From IMG/VR virus record IMGVR_UViG_3300013233_000702: DNA of 64,000 bases, one strand, 5' to 3'. Source of the DNA: an uncultured virus (IMG/VR IMGVR_UViG_3300013233_000702). Lineage: Duplodnaviria; Heunggongvirae; Uroviricota; Caudoviricetes. The notes beneath the pieces are model-generated. The model made no database searches. It saw only the letters and a program-made list of their open reading frames with translations, and was not told the origin of the DNA. The position numbers and the translations under genes are program-made. Below, piece after piece: positions 1 to 29,719 of the stretch. Each line of letters opens with the position of its first letter. Position 1 is the first letter of the stretch.

Positions 1-167
1 GGCGCGGGGCGCGGCCCCGAGGGGGGGGGCGCGGCGGCCCGGCCGCCCGGCCACGAAGGCCCCGGCGCGGGGCGGCCCCGAGGGGGGAGCAGGACGCAGG
101 ACGCAGGACGCAGGACGCCGCAGCATGCGGCTGCGGTGAGACGCCCGAACGGGCAGAAGGAGACAGC

Positions 168-506
168 ATGGAGCAAATGACGATGGCGATGGCGAAGGCG
201 GTTGAGGCGGCACAGAAGGCCGCCCTCAAGCGAATCGCGAAGGTGAGGGACAACGTCCTCGACAAGTACGAGCATGCGGACATCGACACGCTGGAGTTCG
301 ATGAAGCAGCGAACAAGTACAAGGTCCAGATCATCTGCGCGTGCGGGGCTCGCCGGTGGACCTACACGTCGGATCTCTTCCAGATCAAGCAGTGCGACAA
401 GTGCCGGGCCGAGGCCCGGAAGGCCAGGAAGCGGATCAAGGGGGAAGAGCTCAAGCGGCTCCTCGCCCTCCTGAAGGAGCAGGAGGCCGCGAAGGCCGAG
501 GACTAA
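168..506 (+). CDS. Zn-ribbon protein, paralogue 1 of 3
   Basis: AGGAG RBS; ICACG...CDKC motif; highly similar to 2796-3155 and 5479-5886. Confidence 0.85.
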   Translation: MEQMTMAMAKAVEAAQKAALKRIAKVRDNVLDKYEHADIDTLEFDEAANKYKVQIICACGARRWTYTSDLFQIKQCDKCRAEARKARKRIKGEELKRLLALLKEQEAAKAED

Positions 507-509
507 TCA

Positions 510-585
510 CCCAGCTGATGAGGCCCGGTGGCCCCGGGCCGAAACGGGCCTCCCCCGCTTTCCACGGGGGAAGGCCCGTCCTGGG
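510..585 (+). ncRNA. Type I hammerhead ribozyme, copy 1
   Basis: Stem I CCCAG/CTGGG; core CTGATGA 515-521; stem II GGCCCGG/CCGGGCC; GAAA 541-544; stem III CGGGCCT/AGGCCCG; GTC triplet ending at 580. Confidence 0.93.
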
Positions 586-668
586 AAGCTTTCCAAGGGG
601 GAAAGTTGACCGTGTAGGCTTTCCATGGGGGAAAGCCGCAACCGCCCGAATGGGCGGAAGGAGGTTGC

Positions 669-1049
669 ATGGAGCTTATCACCAGCTTTTACCGGGCCGA
701 ATCCTTGATGAAGGATGTCGCTCGTGTGGTCATGGAGACGGATCCTCGGACTTCGGGCCTCGTGGAGGGCGAGGATTGGCAGTTCGTTCTGGTCTCTCCA
801 GAGTGCGGAGAATCCTTGATGAAGGTTGACCTTCGAGTCCGTGGTTTGGCCAATTCTGAGCGCGCTCGGGTCGCTGACATCATCTTTTTTACGGCTCATG
901 CCTTTGATATGCTGACGCCTGGTGCGTCGTTCATCGATGAGGCTGAGGGAGTCAGCCTTTCTGGGGAGCCCTTGAAGGCTCTACGGAGGATTCAGCTCGG
1001 AGCGATGGAGAGGCTCCGGGCGACCTTGACGTCGGAGCCTATCAGCTAG
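669..1049 (+). CDS. hypothetical protein
   Basis: Leader hairpin plus AAGGAGG RBS; 126 aa ORF. Confidence 0.8.
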   Translation: MELITSFYRAESLMKDVARVVMETDPRTSGLVEGEDWQFVLVSPECGESLMKVDLRVRGLANSERARVADIIFFTAHAFDMLTPGASFIDEAEGVSLSGEPLKALRRIQLGAMERLRATLTSEPIS

Positions 1050-1133
1050 GCTTTCCAGGGTGGAAGGTTGGATCCTTGGCTTGGCCGCCCCGCTTTCCAC
1101 GGGGGAAAGCGGGGCGGGCCTTGGGGCGGGGGG

Positions 1134-1181
1134 CTTGCGCGGGGCCGAGCCGCCCGCCACGGGGGCGGCGGCGCGGGGCGC
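1134..1181 (+). promoter_or_regulatory. GC-rich bipartite promoter-like motif
   Basis: CTTGCGCGG-N13-GCCACGGG upstream of the gene at 1246; about 16 copies in the window. Confidence 0.6.
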
Positions 1182-1245
1182 GCCGGCAGCGGGGCCGCAA
1201 GGGGCGGCCCGCAAGAGAGAGCCCGAACGGGCAGAAGGAGGTTGT

Positions 1246-1659
1246 ATGGAGTTTGACTTTGTGGAAGTGATCCGGTGGGAGCCGGAGGCCGACCCCCTGA
1301 TGGAGGACCTGGTAAGGGTGCTTATGTACCATGCGCCCTTCAATCCAAGGATCCTTCCCGTCGAGGGGAAGACCTGGGAGATCAGGTCGGATGGCCACGA
1401 GAAGGCCCTCATGCTCAGGACGCCCGAGGAAGAGGCCTCCGAATGGAGGCAGAGGATCCTCTGGAATCGGGAGGCCTTCGATCTCCTGACGCCTGAGGCG
1501 GCGGTTCTTGGGGCCCACAGCCCAAATAAGGGCTTTCCATGGAGGAAAGCGGGGGATCGGACTACCACGCCGGCTCTTGCCTCCCTCCGAAGGCTCCAGG
1601 CTCATGCGAGGGACGTCGTGACCAAGACGCTCGAAGCCCCAGCTGATGAGGCCCGGTAG
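1246..1659 (+). CDS. hypothetical protein
   Basis: ATG at 1246 after hairpin and AGGAGG; stop codon lies in loop II of hammerhead 2. Confidence 0.75.
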   Translation: MEFDFVEVIRWEPEADPLMEDLVRVLMYHAPFNPRILPVEGKTWEIRSDGHEKALMLRTPEEEASEWRQRILWNREAFDLLTPEAAVLGAHSPNKGFPWRKAGDRTTTPALASLRRLQAHARDVVTKTLEAPADEAR

Positions 1660-1714
1660 CTCCGGGCCGAAACGGCCCCCTCCCTCTTGCACCGCGGGAG
1701 GGGGCCGTCCTGGG
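1638..1714 (+). ncRNA. Type I hammerhead ribozyme, copy 2
   Basis: CCCAG-CTGATGA-GGCCCGG/CCGGGCC-GAAA, 12-bp stem III, GTC ending at 1709, CTGGG. Confidence 0.93.
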
Positions 1715-1795
1715 AAGCTTTCCAAGGGGGAAAGCCCCTGACATGCGGTTTCCATGGGGGAAACCGCAACGCCCGAACGGGCAGAAGGAGGAAGC

Positions 1796-2170
1796 ATGGT
1801 TGAAATGGAGGAGTTTGACCTCGTGACACAGGGCGAGGAGCTTTGTTCACTTCCAGTGAAGCAGGAGGACCGGTGGTATGTCCACCAGATCGCATTGACC
1901 AAGATGGTCATGCGATCAAAAGGAATCGCGTGGGCGGCGGTGATCCGAACTAGCTCGGAGTACCCCGGACATCGCCTGCACTTCTACGTGAAAGAGGGTG
2001 CCAAGGAGCTCGAGCGCCAGATCGAGGCGGTGACCCGCTTCCTCCTCCAATTGGAAGAGGAGAAGGGGAGAGATGCGGACTTCGTCCGCGAGATGCTCAA
2101 GGAGCGGCTGAGGGAGGAGCCGTTCCTTGAGCCGGAGATCCACCCCACCACCGCAGGGAATACCCTCTAA
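1796..2170 (+). CDS. hypothetical protein
   Basis: ATG after hairpin and AGGAGG. Confidence 0.8.
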   Translation: MVEMEEFDLVTQGEELCSLPVKQEDRWYVHQIALTKMVMRSKGIAWAAVIRTSSEYPGHRLHFYVKEGAKELERQIEAVTRFLLQLEEEKGRDADFVREMLKERLREEPFLEPEIHPTTAGNTL

Positions 2171-2229
2171 GGCGGCTTGGCCGCCCCGCTTTCCACGGGG
2201 GAAAGCGGGGCGGGCCTTGGGGCGGGGGG

Positions 2230-2277
2230 CTTGCGCGGGGCCGAGCCGCCCGCCACGGGGGCGGCGGCGCGGGCGCG
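2230..2277 (+). promoter_or_regulatory. GC-rich bipartite promoter-like motif
   Basis: Near-identical to 1134-1181, inside a ~100 bp duplicated intergenic block. Confidence 0.6.
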
Positions 2278-2352
2278 GCCGCTGGGGCCCGCCTGCAAAA
2301 GCGGTTTCCATGGGGGAAAGCCGCTTCGCCCGAACGGGCAGAAGGAGGTTGT

Positions 2353-2628
2353 ATGGAATTGGTAAGAGCGCAGTACGTCGGACTCGACGGGGAAGACCTT
2401 TGGATCAAGGTGGCCGTCGATCTCAAGATCGGGAGCCGGATTCGGCATGGCTTCCTTCTCTTTGAGAACGACGGAAGGGACCTAGAGATCGAGGGGGAGC
2501 TGGAGCCCTTTTCAACCTTGATCATGGGCCCGGGTCTCGAGGCGATCTACAAGGATCCGGAGCAGGAGAACCTTCTTGTGGCCGAGCTGGAGAAGGGTCG
2601 AGAGGCTCTTGAACGGTCTCGAGCCTAG
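2353..2628 (+). CDS. hypothetical protein
   Basis: Hairpin plus AGGAGG RBS; 91 aa. Confidence 0.8.
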   Translation: MELVRAQYVGLDGEDLWIKVAVDLKIGSRIRHGFLLFENDGRDLEIEGELEPFSTLIMGPGLEAIYKDPEQENLLVAELEKGREALERSRA

Positions 2629-2715
2629 TCCCAGCTGATGAGGCCGGGTTGCTCCCGCGCCGAAACGGCCCCCTCCCTTCACGGTCTTGCACCGCGGGAG
2701 GGGGCCGTCCTGGGA
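2629..2715 (+). ncRNA. Type I hammerhead ribozyme, copy 3
   Basis: TCCCAG-CTGATGA, variant stem II (GGC-CGGG/CCCG-C-GCC), GAAA, stem III, GTC ending at 2709, CTGGGA. Confidence 0.9.
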
Positions 2716-2795
2716 AGCTTTCCAAGGGGGAAAGCCCCTGACATGCGGTTTCCATGGGGGAAACCGCAACGCCCGAACGGGCAGAAGGAGGCAGT

Positions 2796-3155
2796 ATGGA
2801 AATGACAGCAGCGATGGCGAAGGCGGTCGAGGCGGCACAGAAGGCTGCCCTCAAACGGTTGAAGAAGGTGAGAGACAACGTCCTCGACAAGTACGAGCAT
2901 GCGGACGTGGATACTCTCGAGTTCGATGAGAGTGCCAACAAGTACCGGGTGCAGATCATCTGCACCCAGTGCGGGGCCCGGAGGTGGACCTTCACGTCGG
3001 ATCTGTTCCAGATCAAGCTCTGCGATGGCTGCCGGGCCGAGGCCCGGAAGGCGCGTAAGAAGATCAAGGGGGAGGAGCTCAAGCGGCTCCTGCTCCTCCT
3101 GAAGGAGGAGGAGACGAAGGCCGAGCCAGTTTCCGATGAGGAAACCGGGGCCTAG
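2796..3155 (+). CDS. Zn-ribbon protein, paralogue 2 of 3
   Basis: CTQC...CDGC; highly similar to 168-506. Confidence 0.85.
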   Translation: MEMTAAMAKAVEAAQKAALKRLKKVRDNVLDKYEHADVDTLEFDESANKYRVQIICTQCGARRWTFTSDLFQIKLCDGCRAEARKARKKIKGEELKRLLLLLKEEETKAEPVSDEETGA

Positions 3156-3241
3156 TCCCAGCTGATGAGGCCCGGTGGCCCCGGGCCGAAACGGCTCCCT
3201 CCCTTCACGGTTTTGCACCGCGGGAGGGGGCCGTCCTGGGA
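3156..3241 (+). ncRNA. Type I hammerhead ribozyme, copy 4
   Basis: TCCCAG-CTGATGA-GGCCCGG/CCGGGCC-GAAA, stem III with one G-U pair, GTC ending at 3235, CTGGGA. Confidence 0.92.
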
Positions 3242-3386
3242 AGCTTTCCAACGGGGAAAGCAGTTCTGGCGTGAACTCAGGATAGATCCGTTGATCGTCA
3301 AGACGTTCTTTGGGTCTCGGCCGTTTGAGAAGGAGCGGCAGAGAGTCTGTGCCTTTCTCTTCTTCGTACACCGAAAGGAGGTTAGG

Positions 3387-3578
3387 ATGATCAAGGTCGG
3401 TCGTGGTTGTAGGTTGTATCGCACAAGGTGTGACCGTCGGAAAGCAGTCGCCATGTTATTGAAGGATGGCTTCAATTATTTTACGGGTTTCAGGGATTCT
3501 CATCCGAGCCATCCGGCTGGCCTGTCATATGCCAGGGCGGATTGGCCCGGTCTCTTTCCGTACATCAAGGATGTCTGA
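3387..3578 (+). CDS. small hypothetical protein
   Basis: AAGGAGG RBS before ATG 3387; 63 aa. Confidence 0.55.
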   Translation: MIKVGRGCRLYRTRCDRRKAVAMLLKDGFNYFTGFRDSHPSHPAGLSYARADWPGLFPYIKDV

Positions 3579-3580
3579 TG

Positions 3581-3632
3581 TTTCTGGCCCCGCTTTCCCC
3601 AGGGGAGCGGGGCCAGAAAAATTTTTCTTTTT
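3581..3632 (+). terminator. intrinsic terminator-like hairpin
   Basis: 14-bp stem TTTCTGGCCCCGCT/AGCGGGGCCAGAAA followed by T-rich tract, at the end of the + strand block. Confidence 0.7.
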
Positions 3633-3647
3633 GATTTACTCTTTAGT

Positions 3648-3820
3648 TTGGCCCTTCTGTATCCGGTCAGATGTGCTTTGGTCGTTGGATCATCCATATC
3701 CGGTCAGATGTGCTTTGGTCGTTGCCCTTCTGTATCCGGTCAGATGTGCTTTGGTCGTTGGCCCTTCTGTATCCGGTCAGATGTGCTTTGGTCGTTGGCC
3801 CTTCTGTATCCGGTCAGATG
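3648..3820. repeat. 37-bp tandem repeat, about 4.7 copies
   Basis: ATCCGGTCAGATG at 3661, 3698, 3734, 3771 and 3808; no unique spacers. Confidence 0.95.
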
Positions 3821-3853
3821 GCCTTCACTGAACCGCTTTCCATCGAGGAAAAT

Positions 3854-3907
3854 GGGCGGCACCCCGTGCGGTGCTCGGCACTTGGCCTTCACCTGGGGGC
3901 GCCGCCC
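3854..3907 (-). terminator. long-loop GC hairpin 3' of a minus-strand gene
   Basis: 12-bp stem with a G-U pair only on the minus strand, followed by ATTTT; sister copy at 5421-5470. Confidence 0.5.
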
Positions 3908-3924
3908 GCCCTCAATTCGTTTCC

Positions 3925-4263
3925 TCAAGCCCTTGGGATCATCAGGGTGAGCTGGTGAAGTGCCCACTCCCTGATCCGTTCAAGCGCATCGTATTCGGTC
4001 AGATGCTTGACGTCGCACCAGGCCTCGTCGATCACCGACCCCGCAGGGTGCAGCAGTTGAAGAGCCTTTTGATGCTCCCGGATCGTCCTCCACAGGTTCC
4101 TGGCTTCCTCCTCGGTGACGTCGGCGTGGACCTCGATCGCTGTGCCGCGCTTGTCCTTGATCGTCTTGACCTCGAAGGGCACCTCTTGCTTGGAGAGAAC
4201 CACCTTGGAGATGTCAAGCAAAAGATCGTATCCCCCATCCTGCATCCATGAGATCACTTCCAT
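3925..4263 (-). CDS. hypothetical protein
   Basis: Hairpin plus AAGGAGG RBS; promoter-like motif at 4323-4370. Confidence 0.75.
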   Translation of the reverse strand: MEVISWMQDGGYDLLLDISKVVLSKQEVPFEVKTIKDKRGTAIEVHADVTEEEARNLWRTIREHQKALQLLHPAGSVIDEAWCDVKHLTEYDALERIREWALHQLTLMIPRA

Positions 4264-4413
4264 GCCTACCTCCTTGCCCGAGCGGGCTCAATCCCAGCGG
4301 GCTCGATCCCAGCGGGGCGGCCGCGCCCCGCGCCGCCGCCCCCGTGGCGGGCCGCTTGGCCCCGCGCAAGACCCCGCAGGCTAGCTTAACGGATGGGTCT
4401 AGATGCGGATCGC

Positions 4414-4920
4414 TTAGCCCCCGAAATGCTTGATCAAGGCCGCCGTGATTGCCTGCTCTGCAGCGGCCTCGGATCGGACGAACCAGTATATGGTCTCGGC
4501 TCGGACGTTCTCATTGCCCTCGGTCAGCAATGTCCTGGCGACCATGGGCAGGTGGGTTTTAGGCACTGCACTTAAGGCAGCGCGGTTGTTCTTGCAGGCC
4601 TCGAGGCAGATATCCATTTCTCTCTTCTTGTCCGGCACGAATTTCAGGTTGTAGCCGTTCGACCTGATTGCCGCAAGGAAGGCGTCCCTGCCGGCCAGGC
4701 TGTGCCGGAGGAGCTGTGGGGTCCATGGGGCCATTAGCACGATCAGGTTCCTGGTCAGTGGCTCCGGTGTGAGTCCACCGCATCTGTAGTCAAGTTCGCC
4801 GCTGATGAGCTTCCTGCAGAGAGTCCCTGTCCTCTGGACCGATAGTCTGTTTGGTAGGCCCGGTCGCAGGGCGGCGATTATCGACTCGATCTCTGGCCGG
4901 GTCAGGCCTGTGGGATCCAT
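4414..4920 (-). CDS. divergent DUF4116-like family member
   Basis: MDPTGLTRPEI N-terminus; AAIRSNGYNLKFVP...DICLEACKNN repeat. Confidence 0.7.
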   Translation of the reverse strand: MDPTGLTRPEIESIIAALRPGLPNRLSVQRTGTLCRKLISGELDYRCGGLTPEPLTRNLIVLMAPWTPQLLRHSLAGRDAFLAAIRSNGYNLKFVPDKKREMDICLEACKNNRAALSAVPKTHLPMVARTLLTEGNENVRAETIYWFVRSEAAAEQAITAALIKHFGG

Positions 4921-5109
4921 GTGACTCCCCTTTCCTTGTATGGCTTCCCGCCCGCCTTTCCCTCATGGAAAGATGTGACAGGAGGCTTGCCTCTGGCCCC
5001 TTTCTCTGACAAGCCTCCTGCCTGATCCTTGATCTTCCTCCTTTGGGCCACGTTTCAGGAGGAAGCCGTAAACGGGGGTGCTCTTGGCATCGTCGCTCCT
5101 TCCTTTAGC

Positions 5110-5391
5110 TCAGGCGTTTGGCACGACGTCCTGGAATGCGACGTGATTGTTCGGCAAAAGGGTTCTGCCGACGCTTTTCCAGAGGCGGTCGCTGGCGTCG
5201 ACCAGGAACGTGGTCGGTCCTCCAGGTCCGAGCCAGAGGACGCGCCTTTTCCCCTTACGGGCGAGGGTGACCCTGCCGAGTCCCCTGTTTGTCTGGACGA
5301 TGAGCGTTGAACCGTGTACGCCCCACTTGATGCCGTTCTGGAGCTCATCGAGGATCTTTCTTGAAAGCTCCTTGCTCGCTTTGAGCATCAT
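5110..5391 (-). CDS. hypothetical protein
   Basis: AGGAG RBS; 93 aa ORF. Confidence 0.65.
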   Translation of the reverse strand: MMLKASKELSRKILDELQNGIKWGVHGSTLIVQTNRGLGRVTLARKGKRRVLWLGPGGPTTFLVDASDRLWKSVGRTLLPNNHVAFQDVVPNA

Positions 5392-5478
5392 CTTTCTCCT
5401 TGTGCAGAGGCTTCTGAAATGGGCGGCACCCCTTGCTGTGTTCCCTGGTGTGTCTCTCGGGGTGCCGCCCGCCCTCGG

Positions 5479-5886
5479 TCAGTCCTGGGTCTCCTCCGGC
5501 TCGGTCTCCTCCGGCTCGGTCTCCTCCGGCTCGGTCTCCTCCGGCTCGGTCTTGGCCGAGGCCTTCGCCTCCTGCTCCTTCAGGAGGAGCAGGAGCCGCT
5601 TGAGCTCCTCCCCCTTGATCTTCTTACGCGCCTTCCGGGCCGAGGCCCGGCAGCCATCGCAGAGCTTGATCTGGAAGAGATCGGAGGTGAAGGTCCAACG
5701 GCGAGCCCCGCATTCCTCGCAGATGATCTGCACCCGATACTTCTGTGCGGTCTCGTCGAAGGTGAGCGTGTCCACGTCCGCGTGAGGGTACTTCGCCGAG
5801 ATGTTCTCGCGGACCTTCTTGATCCGCTTGAGAGCGGCCTTCTGTGCCGCCTCGACCGCTTTCTCCTGCAGAGCTGTGATCTCCAT
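5479..5886 (-). CDS. Zn-ribbon protein, paralogue 3 of 3, with EPEET repeat tail
   Basis: CEEC...CDGC; 15-bp tandem repeat at ~5487-5550. Confidence 0.85.
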   Translation of the reverse strand: MEITALQEKAVEAAQKAALKRIKKVRENISAKYPHADVDTLTFDETAQKYRVQIICEECGARRWTFTSDLFQIKLCDGCRASARKARKKIKGEELKRLLLLLKEQEAKASAKTEPEETEPEETEPEETEPEETQD

Positions 5887-6232
5887 TGCTTCCTCCTCGC
5901 CCGTTCGGGCATCTGGGTGATGTCTTGTTGGGCGCGCGTGCCCCTGCGCGCCCCTGCGGGGCGGCCGCCCCGCGCCGCCGCCCCCGTGGCCGGCGGCTTG
6001 GACCCGCGCAAGACGGGTCCAAGCGGCCCACGAAGGCTAATGTGTGCTTCTGCGCCTACGGACCCGTTCCTTGACCGCCTCCCATTCCTCAGCGGTCCGG
6101 TTCTTGGCAAGCAGCCTGCGGAGAACCGGGTTGTCCCCGAGCCTCTGCACGATCCGGTGTGCCTTTTCACGGCGAAATGGTGTCCTTACGCCACTCATAA
6201 TCATCTCCTTTCCTTGCCCGGCCTCCAAGCGT

Positions 6233-6436
6233 TCACGAGGGCTTGACGTACGCATTGATGTTCAGGGTGACCCCGCCGAACTTGGTCGCGCCGCCGGTGG
6301 AGGCGACCCTGACCGTCTTGCCGGAGGCGGATAGACCACCCCGGTGGGTCCGGTCGACACGGAGCACGATGAAGTCCCCGTCCTCCTCGGCCTGCACGTT
6401 CTCACCGATCATCACCTTCTCGCTTGTCGCTGCCAT
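6233..6436 (-). CDS. small phage protein (SASGKT..ASTGG motif)
   Basis: Hairpin plus GAGGAGG RBS; motif recalled from small phage proteins. Confidence 0.7.
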   Translation of the reverse strand: MAATSEKVMIGENVQAEEDGDFIVLRVDRTHRGGLSASGKTVRVASTGGATKFGGVTLNINAYVKPS

Positions 6437-6560
6437 TTCTACCTCCTCGCCCGTTCGGGCATCGATCCCCCTGCGGGGCGGCCGCGCCCCGCGCCGCCGC
6501 CCCCGTGGCCGGCGGCTCGCCCCCGCGCAAGACGGGCGAGCCGCCTCATGAAGGCCTGTT

Positions 6561-7094: not shown

Positions 7095-7267
7095 CCCTGC
7101 CTCCTCGCCCGTTCGGGCATTGATCCCCAGCGGGGCGGCCGCGCCCCGCGCCGCCGCCCCCGTGGCCGGCGGCTCGCCCCCGCGCAAGACCCCGCAGGCT
7201 GGCTTGATGGCTTGCAAGCGGAACGAGCACGGCAGGGCTTGGTCAAGGATAGTTCCGGCCCGGCGGA

Positions 7268-7879
7268 TCACCCCTGCACGGCAGGGCTTGGCCCCTTGAC
7301 GAACTTGGCAGCAGCCCCATCCCGTCTCACGGCCTCCATGCAGATCTTAGGAGTCTGCTTCCTAACGAACTGCAGGACATAACCAGCCTGTCTCACCGCC
7401 GCCAGGCAGATCTCGGGGGTCTGAACCCTGACGAACTGAAGGGCATATCCGTTCTCCCTTACTGCCTCCAGACAGATCTCGGGCATCTGAACCCTGACGA
7501 ACTGCAAGGCCAGGCCATGTTCCCTGACCGCCGCGAGACACAGCTCCGGAGTCTGATCCCTGACATGCTCAATTGCATGGCCGATGTTCCTCACCGCCTC
7601 CATGCAGATCTCGGGCGTCTGCTCCCTGACGCGCTCAAGCGCGTACCCGTTCTTCCTGACCGCAGCAAGGCAGAGCTCGGGCGTCTGGTTCCTGACGAAC
7701 TGAAGGCAATACTGCGGATTTATCCTGCCCTCTGCCAGGTATTGGACGACACCGGCAACGGATGCCCTTGCGGGATTCATTGCCTCGTCCCTCGGCGGAA
7801 CCAGGCACTCCACGCCCGCGCGCCTAGTTGCCTGAACGAGGTCAAGGACCTCATCCTTCGACAGGTTCGTCAAGTCCAT
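7268..7879 (-). CDS. DUF4116-like 22-aa repeat protein
   Basis: MDLTNLSKDEV; about 6 QTPEICLxAVRxNGxAL repeats. Confidence 0.85.
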   Translation of the reverse strand: MDLTNLSKDEVLDLVQATRRAGVECLVPPRDEAMNPARASVAGVVQYLAEGRINPQYCLQFVRNQTPELCLAAVRKNGYALERVREQTPEICMEAVRNIGHAIEHVRDQTPELCLAAVREHGLALQFVRVQMPEICLEAVRENGYALQFVRVQTPEICLAAVRQAGYVLQFVRKQTPKICMEAVRRDGAAAKFVKGPSPAVQG

Positions 7880-7949
7880 CCCGTACCTCCTTCCCGCCTG
7901 CGGGCTTTCCACGTTGGAAAGCCCGCTACAGAGTCCTTTACTCCTTGAT

Positions 7950-13000: not shown

Positions 13001-13885
13001 TCAATGTCCTTGATCTCCTACGCAAGGTGTTCCTTTTTTCCTCCAGCGCAGAAACCTCCAGCATGGGCGACCCTTGAACTGCTCCCTCTGCTTCACCGCC
13101 GCCTGATGGATCTCCGGCGTCTGCTCCTTCACGAACTGGAAGGCAGTCCCATCCTGCTTTACCGCCGCCAGGCAGATCTCCGGCGTCTGCTCCTTAACGA
13201 ACTCAAGAGCCAATCCATTCTGCCTCACCGCCTCCAGGCAGAGCTCCGGCGTCTGCTCCCTAAGGCACCCGATGGCCTCACCATCCTGTCTCACCGCCGC
13301 CAGGCAGAGCTCCGGCGTCTGCTCATCAATGGCAGAGATGGCAGAACCATCCTGTTGAACCGCCGCCATACAGACCTCCGGCGTCTTGTCCCTGATGAGA
13401 CGAATGTTTTTCCCGACATGCCGTACGGCCTCCAGACAGAGCTCCCGAGTCTGCTCCTCCACGCACCCAATGGCAAAACTGGCACGCTTCACGGCCTCCA
13501 TGCAGATCTCGGGGGTCTGCTCCTTCACGAACCGCAGGGCACCCCCATCCTGCTTCACCGCCGCCAGACAGATCTCTGGTGTCTGCTCCTCAACGAACTG
13601 GAGAGCCATCCCATCCTGTCTCACCGCCGCCAGGCAGAGCTCGGGGGTCTGCTCCTTCACGTGCCACAGGGCCTTCCCGCTCTGACGAACTGCTGCTAGA
13701 CAGATCGCTTCGGTCTGCTCCCCGACGATGAGCACATGTAGTAGAAGACCCATGTGCACGAACTCATCACCGTCCTTCTGGATGAAGTCACTGAGGATCG
13801 TCTCAGCGTCCTCGTCGATCATGACCCTCCTTGCCGCACTGATCAGCGTCCTGACCTCCACCTCGTTCAACCCCGTGATGTCCAT
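13001..13885 (-). CDS. DUF4116-like repeat protein
   Basis: MDITGLNEVEV; about 9-10 repeats. Confidence 0.88.
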   Translation of the reverse strand: MDITGLNEVEVRTLISAARRVMIDEDAETILSDFIQKDGDEFVHMGLLLHVLIVGEQTEAICLAAVRQSGKALWHVKEQTPELCLAAVRQDGMALQFVEEQTPEICLAAVKQDGGALRFVKEQTPEICMEAVKRASFAIGCVEEQTRELCLEAVRHVGKNIRLIRDKTPEVCMAAVQQDGSAISAIDEQTPELCLAAVRQDGEAIGCLREQTPELCLEAVRQNGLALEFVKEQTPEICLAAVKQDGTAFQFVKEQTPEIHQAAVKQREQFKGRPCWRFLRWRKKGTPCVGDQGH

Positions 13886-13888
13886 GAC

Positions 13889-14779
13889 TCACCTCCTCTC
13901 GCGCACAAGAACTGCTCCCTCTACCGCCAGACAGAGCTCCGGCGTCTGCTCCTTCACGAACTGGAGGGCATCCCCATTCTGCTTGACCGCCTCCATGCAG
14001 ATCTCGGGGGTCTGCTCCTTCACGAATGGGAGAGCCCGGCCATCCTGCTTTACCGCCTCCAGGCAGACCTCTGGGGTCTTTTTCTTGACATAATAGAGGG
14101 CACTACCACCCTGCCTCACCGCCGCCAGACAGAGCTCGGGGGTCTGCTCCTTCACGTACTGGAGGGCATCCCCATTCTGCTTGACCGCCTCCATGCAGAT
14201 CTCGGGGGTCTGCTCCTTCACGAACATGAGAGCCGCGCCATTCTGCTGAACCGCCTCCAGGCAGACCTCTGGGGTCTTTTTCTTGACATAATAGAGGGCA
14301 CTACCATCCTGTCTCACCGCCGCCAGGCAGAGCTCCGGCGTCTGCTCCCTCACATACTGAAGCGCCCCACCGCTCTGCCTGACTGCTGCCATACAGACTT
14401 CTGGAGTCCGATCCTTGACGTGCTGCAGAACGTAGCCATTCTGCTTGACCACCTCCAGACACATATCCGGGGTCTGCCTCCGCACATACCGTAAGGCCCT
14501 GAGGCTCCGCCTCAGGGCCTCCATGCAGATCTCCGGCGTCTGCTCCCTCACGTGCTGCAGGGTCCAACCATTCTCCTTTACCGCCGCCAGACAGATCCTC
14601 TCGGTCTGCTCGCCAACGAGCAGTACGTAAAGGAGAATGTTCAACCCATAGAGGTCAATCTTACCCTCAACGAGCTTATTTAGGATAATACTTTCTCTCC
14701 ACCTCGAGCATTTGTCCGTCGACTTCACCGCCTTGACCAGCGTCCTGACCTCCTCCTCGTTCAACCCAGACAGGTCCAT
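13889..14779 (-). CDS. DUF4116-like repeat protein
   Basis: MDLSGLNEEEV; about 10 repeats with an internal 3-repeat duplication. Confidence 0.88.
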   Translation of the reverse strand: MDLSGLNEEEVRTLVKAVKSTDKCSRWRESIILNKLVEGKIDLYGLNILLYVLLVGEQTERICLAAVKENGWTLQHVREQTPEICMEALRRSLRALRYVRRQTPDMCLEVVKQNGYVLQHVKDRTPEVCMAAVRQSGGALQYVREQTPELCLAAVRQDGSALYYVKKKTPEVCLEAVQQNGAALMFVKEQTPEICMEAVKQNGDALQYVKEQTPELCLAAVRQGGSALYYVKKKTPEVCLEAVKQDGRALPFVKEQTPEICMEAVKQNGDALQFVKEQTPELCLAVEGAVLVRERR

Positions 14780-14944
14780 CCTCACCTCCTATCCACAAGG
14801 TTCTTCCATCGAAGGGCAACCCAGACAGGTCCATCCCTCACCTCCATCCTCTGCTTCTTATGCGAGCCAGGATCTGAACAACCGGGCGGCGGGCCGCCCC
14901 GCGCCGCCGCCCCCGTGGCGGGCCGCTTGATCCCGCGCAAGATG

Positions 14945-15320
14945 CCACAGGCGCAGCTCATAAATCCTTGTAAGATATCAGTCAGGACCGTTCTGGAAAC
15001 TTGTATCGCGGGCACGAATTCACAATGTGCGTGATATGCACATTGTGGTTTATAGATATTAAAGAGCACCTTAAAGACATATCTTACCCTAACGAGACTT
15101 TAAGAGGACCCTAAAAGGAATTTTAAAGGACCCTAAGAGACCCTAACAAAATATCTCTGATATATCAGAGAATCTGTATCTTGCATCGGAGATACCTCGG
15201 AAGGCCAGGAAGATACAGCTCCGACGCGGGGTGAAATTCGAGGGCTCATGAGCGGTCTGACTCTCTCCCGTGCCCATTGCCCTATGTGCATACTTGACAC
15301 TTGGGATCAATAATTCCCAT
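14945..15320. other. AT-rich non-coding island, candidate origin
   Basis: Low GC; ACCCTAA x4; perfect 18-bp palindrome 15154-15171. Confidence 0.45.
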
Positions 15321-15436
15321 TCTCCTTTAATAATTTCCCATTTCCTGGTCTGAAGGGTAGGTCTCCTATCCCCTTCCTGGTTAGGTGTGTCCTACTTGAG
15401 TTTTTAAGAAAGAAACTCAAGTATGGGGGTCCTTGA

Positions 15437-16324
15437 TCACTCTTCTCGCGGTTTAGAGGGCCGGAGTCTGCTCCTAGATGCTTTATCGCCATCGGGTCCT
15501 AGCACCCTGGCCCGTACGTAAAGGAGAATGTTCAACCCATAGAGGTCAATCTTACCCTCAACGAGCTTATTTAGGATAGTACTTTCTCTCCACCTCGAGC
15601 ACTTGGCCGTCGACTTCACCGCCTTGACCAGCGTCCTGACCTCCTCCTCATTCAGCCTAGACAGGTCCCTCACGTGCCTCACCGCCTCTAGGCAGATGTT
15701 CTCGGTCTGCTCCTTCACGAACTGTAATGCCCAGCTATTCTGCTTGACCGCCTCCAGGCAGAGCCTCTCGGTCTGCTCCTTCACGAACTGTAGTGCTCGG
15801 CCATTCTGCTTGACCGCCTCCATGCAGATCTCGGGGGTCTGCTCCTTCACGAACTCGAGAGTCAGGCCATTCTGCTTGATCGCCTCCAGGCGGATCTCCT
15901 CAGTCTGTTCCCCGAGGTAGTGAAGGGCAAATCCGTTCTTCCTCACCGCCTCTAGGCAGATCTCGGGAGTCTGCTCCTTAACGTGCTGCAGGATCAGACC
16001 ATTCTTCTTGACCGCCTCTAGGCAGAGCCTCTCGGTCTGCTCCTTTACGAATTGGAGTGCCCGGCCGTTCTGCTTGACCGCCTCTAGGCAGATCTCGGGG
16101 GTCTGCTTTTTCACGTTCTGTAGAACGAGCCCGTCCTGCTTAACAGCAGCCATGCACATGTTCTCAGTCTGCTCCCCATCAATGTAGAGAAGAACATTGA
16201 CGAGCTTGATCTTCCCCTCGCCAAGGTGCTTCAGGATAGTCCGGTCATGCCATTTCGGGTTCGTCCTGCGGACGGCTCTGATCAGCGTCTTGATCTCCTC
16301 TTCGTTTAGCCTTGTCAGGTCCAT
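15437..16324 (-). CDS. DUF4116-like repeat protein with a second leader domain fused at the C-terminus
   Basis: About 8 repeats, then DLSRLNEEEVRTLVKAVKS matching the start of 13889-14779. Confidence 0.85.
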   Translation of the reverse strand: MDLTRLNEEEIKTLIRAVRRTNPKWHDRTILKHLGEGKIKLVNVLLYIDGEQTENMCMAAVKQDGLVLQNVKKQTPEICLEAVKQNGRALQFVKEQTERLCLEAVKKNGLILQHVKEQTPEICLEAVRKNGFALHYLGEQTEEIRLEAIKQNGLTLEFVKEQTPEICMEAVKQNGRALQFVKEQTERLCLEAVKQNSWALQFVKEQTENICLEAVRHVRDLSRLNEEEVRTLVKAVKSTAKCSRWRESTILNKLVEGKIDLYGLNILLYVRARVLGPDGDKASRSRLRPSKPREE

Positions 16325-16406
16325 GTCTCGCCTCCTCGGTTGATCGGCTCTTGCCTTGGTGACAGAGCGGGGTGTTTGATCCCGTGCAAGATGTCACATG
16401 GGCAGC

Positions 16407-17003
16407 TCATAAGTGCTCATGTGCCGGGCTGAAGGGTTGGTCTCCTATCTCTTTCCTGGTTAGGGTGTGTCTGTCTTCCTTGAGTTTCTTTCTTAGTGAT
16501 TGGTGTTGGATTGTTTTGTTTGTAGACAGATGGCTTTTTATTAAGGTAGTTGTTTCCTCCATTTGTTCTTTGAGTTTTGGGTTTTTGATGTGTTGGAGGG
16601 TGTGGCCGTTCTGTTTGATGGCTTGTAGGCAGATTTCTTCTGTTTGGTGTTTGACGTAGTAGAGGGCGTGGCCGTTCTGTTTGACTGCTTGTTGGCAGAT
16701 TTCTTCTGTTTGGTGTTGGGCGTGTTTGAGGGCGTGGCCGTTCTGTTTGACTGCTTGTTGGCAGATTTCTTCTGTTTGGTGTTGGGCGTGTTTGAGGGCG
16801 TGGCCGTTCTGTTTGACTGCTTGTTGGCAGATGGCGGGGGTTTGGTTCTTGACGTATTGGAGGGCTTGTCTTAGGAGTGAGGAGTGTTGTCCTTTGATGA
16901 GTTGTTTGAGGATGGTTGTTCTTGGTTGTTTCTGTGGGAGGACTTTCTGTAGGGCTTGTATGAGGTCTTCTATTTCTTCTTTGGTTAGGTTTGTGAGGTC
17001 CAT
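16407..17003 (-). CDS. DUF4116-like repeat protein (A/C-rich subfamily)
   Basis: MDLTNLTKEEIEDL; near-exact 66-bp repeats. Confidence 0.88.
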   Translation of the reverse strand: MDLTNLTKEEIEDLIQALQKVLPQKQPRTTILKQLIKGQHSSLLRQALQYVKNQTPAICQQAVKQNGHALKHAQHQTEEICQQAVKQNGHALKHAQHQTEEICQQAVKQNGHALYYVKHQTEEICLQAIKQNGHTLQHIKNPKLKEQMEETTTLIKSHLSTNKTIQHQSLRKKLKEDRHTLTRKEIGDQPFSPAHEHL

Positions 17004-17746
17004 GCTTCCTCCTTGAGCTCTTGTTCGAGTTTCTTTCTTAGCTTCTTCATTAGTGTTTGGTCTTTGACGTATTGGAGGGATTGTTCGTTCTGTTTGATTG
17101 CTTGTTGGCAGATTTCTGGTGTTTGGTGTTTGACGTATTGGAGGATCAGTCCATCTTGTTTGACTGCTGCGAGGCAGATTTCTTCTGTTTGGTGTTTGAC
17201 GTATTGGAGGGCCCAGCCGTTTTGTTTGATTGCTTGTAGGCAGATGTCGGGGGCCTGGTGTTTGACGAAGTTGAGGGCGAGGCCGGTTTGTTTGACTGCT
17301 TGTTGGCAGAGTCCCGGGGTTTGGTTCTTGACGAAGTGGAGGGCGAGGCCGTCCTGTTTGATTGCTTGTTGGCAGATTTCGGGGGTTTTGTTCTGGACGT
17401 ATTGGAGGGTGTATCCGTCCTGTTTGACTGCTTGGAGGCAGATGTCGTGGGTTTGTTCCTCGATGAAGTGGAGGGCCCAGCCGTCCTTTTTGACTGCTTG
17501 TAGGCAGATGTCGGGGGTTTGGTTCTGGACGTGCTTGATGGCGAGGCCGTTTTCATTGACTGCTGCGAGGCAGATGTTGGTGGTTTGGTTCTTGACGTAT
17601 TGGAGGGCTTGCTTTAGGAGTGAGGAGAGTTGTCCTTTGATGAGTTGTTCTAGGATGGTGGTTCTTGGTTGTTTCTGTGGGAGGACTTTCTGTGTGGCTT
17701 GTATGAGGTCTTCTATTTCTTCTTTGGTTAGGTTTGTGAGGTCCAT
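16985..17746 (-). CDS. DUF4116-like repeat protein (A/C-rich subfamily)
   Basis: MDLTNLTKEEIEDL; about 8 repeats. Confidence 0.88.
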   Translation of the reverse strand: MDLTNLTKEEIEDLIQATQKVLPQKQPRTTILEQLIKGQLSSLLKQALQYVKNQTTNICLAAVNENGLAIKHVQNQTPDICLQAVKKDGWALHFIEEQTHDICLQAVKQDGYTLQYVQNKTPEICQQAIKQDGLALHFVKNQTPGLCQQAVKQTGLALNFVKHQAPDICLQAIKQNGWALQYVKHQTEEICLAAVKQDGLILQYVKHQTPEICQQAIKQNEQSLQYVKDQTLMKKLRKKLEQELKEEAWTSQT

Positions 17747-18342
17747 GCCTCCTCCTTGAGCTCTTGTTTGAGTTTCTTTCTTAGTGTGGGGTCTTTGACG
17801 TATTGGAGGGCGTGTTCATTCTGTTTGACTGCTGTGAGGCAGAGTCCTGGTGTTTGGTGCTTGACGTATTGGAGGGCGTGGCCGTCCTGTTTGACTGCTT
17901 GTTGGCAGATGTCTGGTGTTTGGTTCTTGACGTACCTGAGGGCGTGGCTGTTTTGTTGGACTGCTGCGAGGCAGATGGCCTCTGTTTGGTGTTTGACGTG
18001 TAGGAGGGCGTAGCCGGTTTGTTTGACTGCTTGTTGGCAGATGTCCTCGGTTTGGTGCTGGACGTAGGCGAGGGCGTGGACGTTCTGTTTGATTGCTGCC
18101 AGGCAGGTGTCGGGGGCCTGGTGCTTGACGTGGTAGAGAGCGAGTCCGTTCTGTTTGACTGCTTGGAGGCAGATGGCAGGGGTTTGTCTATAGGCGAGGT
18201 TTTTGAGTGCTTGTCCTAGGTATGAGGATAGCCGTCCTTGGATGAGCTGTTCGAGGGTGGTTATTCTTGGTTGTGGTTTGAGTTTCTGTATGGCTTGGAG
18301 GAGGTCTTCTATTTCGTCCTTGGTTAGGTTTGTGAGGTCCAT
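17728..18342 (-). CDS. DUF4116-like repeat protein (A/C-rich subfamily)
   Basis: MDLTNLTKDEIEDL; about 6 repeats. Confidence 0.88.
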   Translation of the reverse strand: MDLTNLTKDEIEDLLQAIQKLKPQPRITTLEQLIQGRLSSYLGQALKNLAYRQTPAICLQAVKQNGLALYHVKHQAPDTCLAAIKQNVHALAYVQHQTEDICQQAVKQTGYALLHVKHQTEAICLAAVQQNSHALRYVKNQTPDICQQAVKQDGHALQYVKHQTPGLCLTAVKQNEHALQYVKDPTLRKKLKQELKEEAWTSQT

Positions 18343-18343
18343 G

Positions 18344-18943
18344 CTATTCCTCCTTGAGCTCTTGTTTGAGTTTCTTTCTTAGTGCGGGGTCTTTGACGTA
18401 TTGGAGGGCGAGTCCGTTATACTTGACTGCTTGTTGGCAGAGGTCTTCGGTTTGGTGCTGGACGTAGAAGAGGGCGTGGCCGTCCTGTTTGACTGCTTGT
18501 TGGCAGATTTCTGTGGTTTGGCGTTTGACGTACTCGAGGGCTGTGCCGTCCTGCCTTACAGCCTCCAGGCTGATGTCTTCGGTTTGGTGCTGGACGTAGT
18601 AGAGGGCAGTGCCGTCCTGTTTTATTGCTGCGAGGCAGATGTCCTCGGTTTGGTGCTGGACATAGTGGAGTGCGAGTCCGTTTTGTTTGACTGCTTGTAT
18701 GCAGATGTCCTCGGTTTGGTGCCTGACGTGCTGGAGGGCTCGACCGTTTTGTTTGACTGCTGCGAGGCAGATGGCCTCGGTTTGGTGCTTGACGTGTTGG
18801 AGGGCTTGCTCTAGGTGCGGAGAATGTTGTCCTTGGATTAGTTGTTTTAGGATGGCGATTCGTGGTTGTTTCTGTTGTTGGGTTTTCTGTATGGCTTGGA
18901 GGAGGTCTTCTATCTCTTCCTTGGTTAGGTTTGTGAGGTCCAT
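18344..18943 (-). CDS. DUF4116-like repeat protein (A/C-rich subfamily)
   Basis: MDLTNLTKEEIEDL; about 6 repeats. Confidence 0.88.
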   Translation of the reverse strand: MDLTNLTKEEIEDLLQAIQKTQQQKQPRIAILKQLIQGQHSPHLEQALQHVKHQTEAICLAAVKQNGRALQHVRHQTEDICIQAVKQNGLALHYVQHQTEDICLAAIKQDGTALYYVQHQTEDISLEAVRQDGTALEYVKRQTTEICQQAVKQDGHALFYVQHQTEDLCQQAVKYNGLALQYVKDPALRKKLKQELKEE

Positions 18944-19611
18944 GCTTCCTCCTTGAGTTTGTGCCGGAGTTTGTACTTGAGTTTCGTGCTCTTGACATAT
19001 TGGAGGGCTTTTTCGTTCTGTTGGACTGCTGCGAGGCAGATGTTTGGGATTTTGTGCTTGACGTACCTGAGGGCGTGTCCGTTTTCATTGACTGCTTGCA
19101 TGCAGATGTCTTCTGTTTGGTGCTTGATGTACTTGAGGGCAGTGCCGTCCTGTTTGACTGCTTGTAGGCAGATTTCCTCGGTTTGGTGCTGGACGTAGTA
19201 GAGGGCCCAGCCAGCCTCTTTGACTGCTTGGAGGCAGATGTCCTCGGTCTGGCGTTGGACGTACTTGAGGGCCAAGCCGTTTTCTTTGACTGCTGCGAGG
19301 CAGATTTCCTCGGTCTGGTTCTGGACGTACTTGAGGACGTAGCCTTTCTGTTTGACTGCTGTGAGGCAGATGTCTGGTGTTTGGTGCTGGACGTATTGGA
19401 GGGCTCTGCCGTTCTGTTTGACAGCTGCCTGACAGATTTTCTTGGTCTGTCTGTGAGCGAGATTGTTGAGGGCTTGCCCTAGGAATGAGGAGAGTTGTTG
19501 TCCTTGGACGAGTTGTTCTAGGATGGCGATTCGTGGTTTCTGAGGGAAGATTTTCTGTATTGCTTGGAGGAGGTCTTCTATTTCTTCCTTGGTTAGGTTT
19601 GTGAGGTCCAT
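18925..19611 (-). CDS. DUF4116-like repeat protein (A/C-rich subfamily)
   Basis: MDLTNL start at 19611; about 7 repeats. Confidence 0.88.
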   Translation of the reverse strand: MDLTNLTKEEIEDLLQAIQKIFPQKPRIAILEQLVQGQQLSSFLGQALNNLAHRQTKKICQAAVKQNGRALQYVQHQTPDICLTAVKQKGYVLKYVQNQTEEICLAAVKENGLALKYVQRQTEDICLQAVKEAGWALYYVQHQTEEICLQAVKQDGTALKYIKHQTEDICMQAVNENGHALRYVKHKIPNICLAAVQQNEKALQYVKSTKLKYKLRHKLKEEAWTSQT

Positions 19612-19636
19612 GCTGTCTCCTCCTTGAGGTTCTTTC

Positions 19637-20212
19637 TTAGCGTGGGGTCTTGACGTACTTGAGGACTCGACCGTTCTGTTTGATTGCTTGTTGGCAGATT
19701 TCTTCTGTTTGGTGCTTGACGTATTGGAGGGCCCAGCCGTTTTCTTTGACTGCTGTGAGGCAGATAGCTGTGGTTTGATGCTGGACGTAATACAGGGCGA
19801 GGCCGTCCTGTTTGACAGCTGTGTGGCAGAGTTCGGGGGTTTGGTGTTTGACATACCTGAGGACGAGGCCGAATTGTTTGACAGCTGTGTGGCTGAGTTC
19901 GGGGGTTTGGTGCTTGACGCACTGGAGGGCGTGGCCGTCATGTTTGACTGCTGCTAGGCAGATGGCCTCGGTTTGGTGCTTGACGCATTGGAGGGCGTAA
20001 GCGTCCTGTTTTACTGCTGCGAGGCAGATGGCTGGGGTCTGTTTGTGGGCGAGGGCGAGGCTGTTGAGGGCTTTCCTGATGAAGCTGGGCTCTAGCTCGC
20101 CGTTGATGAGTTGTTCGAGGGTGGTTGTTCTTGGTTGTTTTCGTGGGAGGACCTTCTGCATGGCTTGGAGGAGGTCTTCTATCTCTTCCTTGGTAAGGTT
20201 TGTGAGGTCCAT
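19637..20212 (-). CDS. DUF4116-like repeat protein (A/C-rich subfamily)
   Basis: MDLTNL; about 6 repeats. Confidence 0.88.
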   Translation of the reverse strand: MDLTNLTKEEIEDLLQAMQKVLPRKQPRTTTLEQLINGELEPSFIRKALNSLALAHKQTPAICLAAVKQDAYALQCVKHQTEAICLAAVKHDGHALQCVKHQTPELSHTAVKQFGLVLRYVKHQTPELCHTAVKQDGLALYYVQHQTTAICLTAVKENGWALQYVKHQTEEICQQAIKQNGRVLKYVKTPR

Positions 20213-22957: not shown

Positions 22958-23078
22958 TTCTTTCTCCTCTCTTGACTGTCCGTGGGGGCGGCCGGCCCGC
23001 CCCGCGCCGCCCGCCCCGTGGCGGGCCGCTTGATCCCGCGCAAGATGCCCGAATATGCTCGGGGGTGCTTCGAGACAC

Positions 23079-23684: not shown

Positions 23685-24079
23685 TTCGAATCTCCCCGGA
23701 CTCTCTGTTTGGCATGCCTTCTTGAGGCCACGTGATGTGGCGGATGACCTCCACATTCTGCTTCACCGCCTCCAGGCAGTCGTTGATCCTTCTGGTTGCC
23801 CTTATCAGGCCATGGATCTCCTTTTCGCTCATTTCCAAGAGGTTCATTGGTTGCTCCTTGAGAGTTTCCGGATTGGAAATTGTTACTGTACGGTTATCGG
23901 GCTCTGCAGAGTTCGGGGGTCTGCTCGAGACCGGGGAAGATATCCTGCATGAGGATCTCGCCTCGCTGGAGGTATTCGAGGATGGTTGCCTCCTTTAACC
24001 TTCGGTGGTTGCCGTCGATGGTCCTGACTGAGTCTATCAGGTCCGTGATCTCTTGCTTGCCTAGCTTCGAGAGGTCCAT
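23662..24079 (-). pseudogene. two truncated DUF4116-like genes (23662-23847, 23894-24079)
   Basis: Leader domains with only a partial repeat each. Confidence 0.6.
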
Positions 24080-29682: not shown

Positions 29683-29719
29683 TGCTCCTCCTTTCGCTGG
29701 GTGAATGCTGATGAATGCT

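Follow-up and report, generated by a model that had tools for sequence, protein, structure and literature searches.

Does the transcript of a phage-like element cut itself between its genes? This question is raised by a 64,000-nucleotide stretch of DNA from an uncultured virus (IMG/VR record IMGVR_UViG_3300013233_000702), which at its full length is called the window here. Near its beginning lies an array of seven small genes (g1 to g7) on the + strand. A preliminary description, made from the sequence alone, had placed four complete type I hammerhead ribozymes (HH1 to HH4) on the coding strand between these genes. Pattern scanning, a covariance model, RNA folding and the pattern of variation among the copies all agree with the four positions proposed, and HH1 to HH4 are probably functional type I hammerheads of a phage-like element, where they would split two- and three-gene transcripts into single-gene mRNAs.

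Four type I hammerheads in a gene array

The scan of both strands of the window required the core box CUGANGA, then a stem II with 3 or more pairs that closes ahead of GAAA, a stem III with 4 or more pairs whose first is A15.1-U16.1, any nucleotide other than G at position 17 and, after it, 4 or more pairs of stem I. Four complete type I hammerheads and no others matched in the 64 kb, all of them on the + strand (Table 1). The chance expectation was 0.01 matches per window, with a maximum of 1, in 100 simulations of the window that used a first-order Markov background and not a true dinucleotide shuffle.

In all four motifs stems II and III are closed by loops, stem I is open and G10.1-C11.1 closes stem II, which gives the three-helix architecture of the class. 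Stem I comprises 5-6 bp, stem II 7 bp and stem III 13-14 bp. The copies differ in detail: HH1 combines the 7-bp stem II with a stem III of 8 bp and 6 bp around a bulged A, HH3 has a bulged C in stem II and a 13-bp stem III with a distal mini-hairpin, and the 13 bp of stem III in HH4 include one G-U pair. The catalytic core is intact in every copy, as had been claimed. The box C3-U4-G5-A6-N7-G8-A9 invariably reads CUGAUGA, GAAA is followed by the A-U pair that closes stem III (A15.1-U16.1, with pair 36-79 being AU in 4/4 copies), and the cleavage triplet GUC lies directly 5' of the 3' strand of stem I in all four. The predicted cut positions are likewise those of the preliminary description. 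Self-cleavage at these sites is expected from established hammerhead chemistry.

The placement of the motifs is equally regular. Within 2.7 kb they follow g1, g3, g5 and g6, each between two + strand open reading frames (ORFs) with ribosome-binding sites, and each lies at or over a stop codon of the coding strand, in agreement with the earlier observation. The g1 stop TAA (504-506) is located 3 nt upstream of HH1, and the TAG stops of g5 (2626-2628) and g6 (3153-3155) abut HH3 and HH4. The frame of g3 enters HH2 and ends at UAG (1657-1659) in its loop II.

Covariance model, folding and variation among the copies

A pattern search of IMG/VR yielded 20 loci for calibration, many with textbook-looking type I hammerheads. 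The covariance model R1 was trained on 6 hammerheads from three unrelated IMG/VR contigs, none of them from the window. Over the full length of the model and with rough calibration, R1 scored HH1 at 38.6 bits (E 5e-9), HH2 at 43.7 bits (E 1e-10), HH3 at 35.0 bits (E 7e-8) and HH4 at 41.9 bits (E 5e-10); the next-best match in the window reached only 15.1 bits (E 0.13). In sequence, fold, class membership and position the four motifs are type I hammerheads.

Folded with short flanks, HH2, HH3 and HH4 adopted the three-way junction as the minimum free energy structure (z = -6.1, -4.4 and -3.1, respectively), and HH1 formed stems II and III, not the 5-bp stem I. The motif alone folded into the junction in all four cases, with a probability of about 0.77 each. 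In HH2 only, the minimum free energy fold also allowed GAAGC (1633-1637) to pair with GCUUU (1717-1721); this would give a stem I of 10 pairs with an AA bulge that competes with the first downstream hairpin.

In an alignment of the four sequences, pairing was kept in 97 of 100 cells, compared to 38-65% in controls with slid partners. Twenty-six of the 85 alignment columns vary, and the 21 that make up stem I and the unpaired core are all constant (hypergeometric P 1e-4; 4e-3 without loop III). Conservation starts exactly at stem I, and the coding sequences upstream are unrelated. According to the preliminary description, stems II and III differ between copies and still pair. This holds for stem III, where three pairs are compensatory, all between HH1 and the other three copies, and one further pair becomes G-U in HH4. 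It does not hold for stem II, which is identical in HH1, HH2 and HH4; HH3 retains 7 pairs by a shifted register and its bulged C.

Leaders, repeats and genes around the hammerheads

The features of the array and related elements in the window are collected in Table 1.

Table 1. Positions of ribozymes, RNA and DNA elements and genes in the window
Feature	Position	Strand	Description	Basis
HH1	510..585	+	type I hammerhead; stem I CCCAG/CUGGG; predicted cut after C580	scanner
HH2	1638..1714	+	type I hammerhead; predicted cut after C1709	scanner
HH3	2629..2715	+	type I hammerhead; stem I 6 bp; predicted cut after C2709	scanner
HH4	3156..3241	+	type I hammerhead; stem I 6 bp; predicted cut after C3235	scanner
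Hairpin pair after HH1	587-607, 617-637	+	motif CUUUCC-A-N-G-G-G-GGAAAG	
Hairpin pair after HH2	about 1716-1736, 1745-1767	+	same CUUUCC..GGAAAG motif	
Hairpin pair after HH3	2716..2767	+	same CUUUCC..GGAAAG motif	
Single hairpin after HH4	3242..3262	+	same motif, loop AACGG	
CUUUCC-N5-GGAAAG sites	558-574, 589-605, 619-635, 1093-1109, 1533-1549, 1718-1734, 2189-2205, 2304-2320, 2718-2734, 3244-3260	+		
CUUUCC-N5-GGAAAG sites	4956-4972, 7905-7921	-		
Leader mini-hairpin	143-163, 644-664, 1221-1241, 1771-1791, 2328-2348, 2771-2791	+	GCCCGAAYGGGC, then Shine-Dalgarno; one before each of g1-g6	
B repeat core	1150..1177 (g2/g3), 2246-2273 (g4/g5)	+	G+C-rich	alignment
B repeat, diverged copy	about 1-88	+	before g1	alignment
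B repeat	4327-4354, 5969-5996, 6488-6515, 7145-7172, 14898-14925, 23001-23028	-		
Likely intrinsic terminator	3581..3619	+	18-bp hairpin then T-run; closes the + strand array	
g1	168..506	+	112-aa zinc-ribbon protein (CxxC...CxxC)	ORF
g2	669..1049	+	126 aa; second gene of unit 1	ORF, leader, GGAGG
g3	1246..1659	+	137 aa; first gene of unit 2	
g4	1796..2170	+	124 aa; second gene of unit 2	
g5	2353..2628	+	91 aa; first gene of unit 3	
g6	2796..3155	+	119-aa zinc-ribbon protein; between HH3 and HH4	
g7	3387..3578	+	63-aa ORF; AAAGGAGG ribosome-binding site; last gene before terminator	

A CUUUCC-ANGGG-GGAAAG hairpin begins 6 nt downstream of each predicted cut. After HH1, HH2 and HH3 a second hairpin and a leader follow, and the start codon is reached 86-88 nt after the cut. 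A hairpin and a ribosome-binding site had been noted only after the first three cuts; they were found there, and the fourth cut is likewise followed by a hairpin and then by a gene with a ribosome-binding site, g7, whose ATG (3387) lies 151 nt downstream. For the CUUUCC..GGAAAG motif, 0.03 matches would be expected in the window and 14 were obtained, of which two are reverse-strand readings of the same palindromic sites. One copy (1533-1549) lies in frame within g3, where it encodes KGFPWRKAG, and another (558-574) forms the tip of stem III of HH1. Conservation of the stem sequence itself suggests a binding site for a protein, which could act at the RNA or the DNA level.

The leader consists of a mini-hairpin that runs into the Shine-Dalgarno sequence, with six matches against 0 expected. 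The 20-mer GCCCGAACGGGCAGAAGGAG, in which the mini-hairpin abuts the Shine-Dalgarno sequence, was also encountered outside the window, with an ATG 5-9 nt downstream in 7 of 9 otherwise unrelated metagenome or viral loci (L149, L150, L151, L153 and L155-L157, which represent four distinct sequences). This count is near chance for a 20-mer and may reflect either coincidence or a recurrent design for translation initiation.

A second conserved intergenic element, the B repeat, has a 28-nt core (CCGCCCGCCACGGGGGCGGCGGCGCGGG) that occurs in 8 copies in the window, with 0 expected. It is always oriented like the local genes, 60-115 nt ahead of a start codon, and its 10-bp hairpin has direct GCGCGGGGC repeats on either side; no known type of element was matched. 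A different class of ribozyme was considered for B and rejected: no Rfam ribozyme family matched it at E ≤ 10, and its sequence is conserved, not its pairing. B probably serves as a promoter or operator specific to the element, or as some other RNA signal. If it were a promoter or operator, the array would consist of three short units. Two further repeats border the array, namely a 7-bp repeat GCAGGAC (4.3 copies, 89-118) just upstream of g1 and an iteron-like 37-bp unit TTGGCCCTTCTGTATCCGGTCAGATGTGCTTTGGTCG (4.7 copies at 91% identity, 3648-3820) in the gap between the + strand array and the minus-strand genes that run towards it.

Significant matches to Pfam or PHROG families were absent for all of g1 to g7; g6 gave two sub-threshold Pfam rows only (E 0.004 and 0.009). 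The AlphaFold model of g6 (mean predicted local distance difference test score 77.5) comprises a long helix, a three-stranded zinc ribbon and a second long helix. Together with a minus-strand gene at 5479-5886, g1 and g6 form a set of paralogous zinc-ribbon proteins that are 76-85% identical (g1 is 85% and 76% identical to its paralogs). A 15-bp repeat of 4.3 copies (5488-5552) encodes the TEPEE tail of the minus-strand paralog. A more distant pair is formed by g2 and g3, which share 28% identity over 132 aa. The start of g4 was assigned to ATG 1796, 5 nt after GGAGG, in preference to the in-frame ATG at 1754, which lies inside hairpin 2.

Nature of the DNA and search for relatives

Several other proteins of the window bear on the nature of the element. 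An AAA ATPase (28057-29745, minus strand) matches phrog_8638 at 2e-131 and has relatives of 31-42% identity in phages and also in plasmids, both of which commonly carry such a protein. A VWA-like putative metallopeptidase (DUF2201; 20234-21526, minus strand), of a kind common in phages and plasmids, matches phrog_1314 at 5e-58, and a helicase matches phrog_16 at 1e-45. Of the 34 window proteins that were scanned, none was recognised as a capsid, terminase or tail protein. The element is called phage-like because of these PHROG matches and of the g6 relatives on viral contigs; no structural phage gene was recognised in this stretch, which is one half of a 128,400-bp contig.

The window also carries at least 12 genes for DUF4116 repeat proteins (7268-7912, 13001-19941, 23079-23756, 42966-43634 and 4414-4920, minus strand). 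Eight of them stand in tandem at 13.0-19.9 kb, and the region of 16-20 kb shows a lower G+C content (50-52%) and strong skews. A 229-aa protein (44114-44803, minus strand) gave weak matches to nucleotidyltransferase domains of ATP-dependent ligases (Pfam RNA_ligase 1.9e-6, Pfam DNA_ligase_A_M 5.7e-5, NCBIfam NHEJ ligase domain 1.5e-5). It has no solved relative by sequence, is located 40 kb from the ribozymes and was not linked to them.

The search for relatives was centred on g6. A family profile retrieved 445 representative clusters at E ≤ 1e-3; in IMG/VR it matched 12 loci, of which several lie on contigs of 107-247 kb. R1 detected no hammerhead near the g6 relatives in these 12 viral loci (best match 12.3 bits, E 0.37) and none in 5 whole viral records with g6-family relatives (893 kb). 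As a positive control on whole records, it gave 24 matches in 5 records that bear hammerheads. The hammerheads are not tied to the g6 gene family. The closest viral relative of g6, with 49% identity, is found on a 247-kb IMG/VR contig (locus L158) and has no hammerhead. There, the stem motif CUUUCC-ACUCC-GGAAAG (3521, 4066, 4768 and 6148) is followed by a leader hairpin and a ribosome-binding site before the genes. This arrangement suggests that the mRNAs of this lineage normally begin with such a hairpin, and in the window the ribozyme would create such an end within a transcript.

Other searches added little. Single-protein searches of viral contigs with g6 and g2 gave no relatives, and a search for homologous proteins of g6 gave its own paralogs and only one further relative of 39% identity (P0004) on a 4-kb contig. 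A fold search of the PDB with the g6 model returned no match at E ≤ 0.001, the best rows being zinc-ribbon overlaps of 31 residues; the ESM Atlas gave only unnamed viral clusters with scores of up to 0.90, which is a lead only. At the nucleotide level, blastn of positions 1-4500 against a phage collection found no match. The 16-mer CCCAGCTGATGAGGCC occurs in at least 120 genome-contig stretches and 8 viral loci. These matches were dismissed as chance, and the scanner found a hammerhead in 0 of 128 loci. A metagenome scan for a hammerhead together with GTCCTGGGAAGC gave 0 matches, and scans with the 20-nt leader led to 6 loci in metagenomes and 3 in viral sequences, all of them unrelated and devoid of hammerheads.

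Evidence against active ribozymes and alternative explanations

Several results weigh against the view that the four hammerheads process transcripts in the cell. The first concerns Rfam, which had been proposed as a check. Rfam 15 gave 0 matches at gathering score over the whole window, and at E ≤ 10 over positions 1-4500 only 9 weak matches, none to a ribozyme family; the hammerhead models (RF00163, RF00008, RF02275, RF02276, RF02277 and RF03152) missed HH1-HH4 even at this relaxed threshold. This silence is not counted as contrary evidence, because obvious phage hammerheads are missed as well: Rfam at gathering score also gave 0 matches on 7 phage loci with such hammerheads, and for one of the phage loci (L131) the scores of the hammerhead families stayed at 19-24 bits, below their gathering scores of 37-56. 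The Rfam models do not cover short-stem I phage hammerheads of this kind.

The second concerns folding in longer RNA. When 100-200 nt of upstream RNA were included, the equilibrium probability of the full junction was 0.001-0.27 for HH1, HH2 and HH3 in most contexts; HH4 kept a probability of 0.75-0.78 in longer upstream context with its downstream flank present. In these calculations the short stem I is the weak point of junction folding in a long RNA. Moreover, inspection by eye of HH1-HH4 revealed no consistent tertiary contact or pseudoknot of loop II, whose sequences (UGGCC, UAGCU, UUGCU and UGGCC in HH1 to HH4) show no flank pairing that is consistent across the copies. With a stem I of 5-6 bp and no visible tertiary contact, the motifs may be slow 'minimal' hammerheads at cellular Mg2+ concentrations.

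On these observations, the motifs could have the shape of hammerheads and yet show little or no catalysis in the cell. Their retention would then be due to very stable 3' structures that pause or terminate transcription, block exonucleases or bind proteins, and cleavage would be incidental. The short stem I, the low junction probability of three of the four motifs in longer RNA, the Rfam result and stems II and III that are unusually long and G+C-rich compared to the IMG/VR phage hammerheads are all consistent with this explanation. However, in spite of 26 varying columns no copy has lost any of the 11 unpaired core nucleotides or the GUC triplet, and a structure alone would not need them; besides, phage hammerheads with a stem I of 4-5 bp are common and occur in arrays. 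This explanation is considered unlikely.

A third point concerns the independence of the copies. Over the 89 nt that follow the cuts of HH2 and HH3, the two sequences agree at 87 positions (5' untranslated region (UTR) 2710-2798 compared to 1710-1798), and HH2, HH3 and HH4 with their flanks are, by sequence comparison, recent copies of one module. The four hammerheads are thus not four independent witnesses. Every compensatory change comes from HH1 alone, so that this copy bears most of the comparative weight.

The hammerhead, the hairpins and the leader could accordingly belong to a selfish or recently duplicated intergenic cassette that duplication or gene conversion carried through the array; the conservation would then reflect youth and not selection for mRNA processing. 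Such a cassette would explain the near identity of the modules after HH2 and HH3 between unrelated flanking genes. The hairpin motif within the g3 frame and in stem III of HH1 looks as if it inserted itself, and the 893 kb of viral records with g6-family relatives lack hammerheads. On the other hand, HH1 has diverged, with three compensatory pairs and another distal stem III, and has kept core and stem I perfect, and each copy is in register with a stop codon and a ribosome-binding site, on the coding strand only. A purely youthful cassette is quite unlikely in view of these features, and mobility and activity are not exclusive in any case.

Two further points belong on the same side of the balance. 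No relative of this hammerhead module was found in the 16-mer and metagenome scans or in the scans of g6-family loci and records. Furthermore, the promoter role of B is a guess, and no sigma-70-like site was recognised on the + strand in 1-6500.

Proposed processing of the transcript

Functional hammerheads that separate the genes remain the preferred explanation. From it we infer cleavage, the transcription units and the effects on mRNA stability and translation as follows. Transcription would produce three units that each start at a B repeat, the first with B, g1, HH1 and g2, the second with B, g3, HH2 and g4, and the third with B, g5, HH3, g6, HH4, g7 and the terminator. As the polymerase passes each hammerhead, the RNA would fold co-transcriptionally and then cut itself after GUC. 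Type I topology implies that the stop codon and the whole ribozyme would be retained on the upstream mRNA, whose 3' end would form a very stable fold and carry a 2',3'-cyclic phosphate. The downstream mRNA would begin with a 5'-OH and 5-6 nt of stem I (CUGGG(A)), followed by the conserved hairpin, the second hairpin, the leader mini-hairpin and the ribosome-binding site. The outcome would be single-gene mRNAs with a standardised 5' UTR, the stability and translation of which would be independent of the neighbouring gene.

The invariance of stem I permits one more explanation, in which the hammerheads join RNA as well as cut it. A fragment would dock its 5' end on its own 3' hammerhead and be circularised, or be joined to a fragment of another cassette. 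Stem I (CCCAG/CUGGG) is invariant in 4/4 copies and stems II and III vary; a similar pattern is found in two phage arrays (G007 and G008), where all copies share stem I (CCGC/GCGG) and stems II and III are widely different. In addition, Perreault et al. (2011; PMC3088659) remark that type I alone leaves the cyclic phosphate on the same product as most of the catalytic core, as is suited to ligation to another strand. However, a stem I of 5-6 bp favours product release and hence cleavage over ligation, the L131 array has a different stem I in each copy and, if the B repeats are promoters or terminators, only 2710-3235 is bounded by two cuts in one transcript. RNA joining has, on this evidence, a very slim chance of being correct. 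Its concrete form, in which the shared stem I would allow the g6 mRNA (2710-3235) to be circularised by the reverse reaction of the ribozyme or by a host ligase, or fragments of cassettes to be joined, is likewise highly unlikely. If true, it would provide a natural circular or shuffled phage mRNA that is translatable, exonuclease-resistant and made by type I hammerheads, and the shared-stem I logic would extend to the arrays of G007 and G008.

Comparison with known systems

The novelty implied by the preliminary description is not supported. Clustered prophage hammerheads with in vitro cleavage are already described in PMC3088659. According to that paper, multiple hammerheads often flank single genes or short gene blocks in prophages, and such clustering implies that long phage transcripts are processed into gene-length mRNAs. 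Three such arrangements, in polycistronic fragments of about 2 kb, cleave during in vitro transcription, and one cleaves in Escherichia coli. The window resembles these clusters in having several close hammerheads on the coding strand that flank single genes or short blocks. It differs from them in that its hammerheads alternate with B, a second conserved intergenic repeat.

Hammerhead arrays from IMG/VR allow a closer comparison. R1 found 7, 6 and 7 hammerheads in the phage contigs G006, G007 and G008 (two of the three are complete genomes), and each set is confined to one stretch of 3-4.5 kb with small ORFs. The arrays (L131/G006, L132/G007, L139/G008 and L142) share with the window type I hammerheads with the same core at or over the upstream stop codon; their stem I has 4-5 bp. 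The IMG/VR phage hammerheads measure 47-66 nt, compared to 74-85 nt in the window, where stem III has 13-14 pairs and accounts for the length. In 20 of 32 of them, counted in the loci L131, L132, L137, L139, L140, L142 and L146, the first UGA of CUGAUGA is itself the stop codon of the upstream ORF, so that the core serves a double function; as L132, L139 and L142 are related contigs, these counts are not independent. In the window, by contrast, none of the four stops falls on CUGAUGA, three being located just before stem I and one in loop II. Each hammerhead of the window is followed by a conserved structured 5' UTR of 85 nt, whereas the corresponding distance is roughly 20-28 nt in most IMG/VR arrays. 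The latter lack the hairpin, the leader and the B repeats of the window, and beyond the hammerhead consensus no sequence relationship is apparent.

The array had also been likened to the synthetic insulator RiboJ. In PMC6206723, RiboJ is described as a ribozyme derived from sTRSV with a 23-nt hairpin, an element whose uncleaved part remains on the downstream mRNA. The analogy is appropriate for the outcome: a cut would remove the upstream context, a hairpin and then a ribosome-binding site follow, and the downstream 5' end, and with it the 5' UTR, would be fixed. It fails for the topology. Set against that description, the whole ribozyme of the window would stay upstream and the downstream mRNA would keep only 5-6 nt of stem I, CUGGG(A). 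The element of the window is, moreover, natural and placed between two translated genes, and RiboJ between a promoter and a gene.

With the Rfam hammerhead families the four motifs have the catalytic core and the three-helix junction in common. To these families the locus adds four well-supported predicted hammerheads that the curated models miss. Since long-stem III variants and short-stem I phage hammerheads fall below the Rfam thresholds, phage ribozyme arrays are probably under-counted. The arrangement is already known in kind, as clustered gene-flanking phage hammerheads (PMC3088659), and no new class of element is represented. The locus is also a clean natural case of a predicted ribozyme cut with a constant, structured 5' UTR behind it, placed between translated genes. 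It offers a convenient system in which to study the contribution of hammerhead processing to the expression of phage genes.

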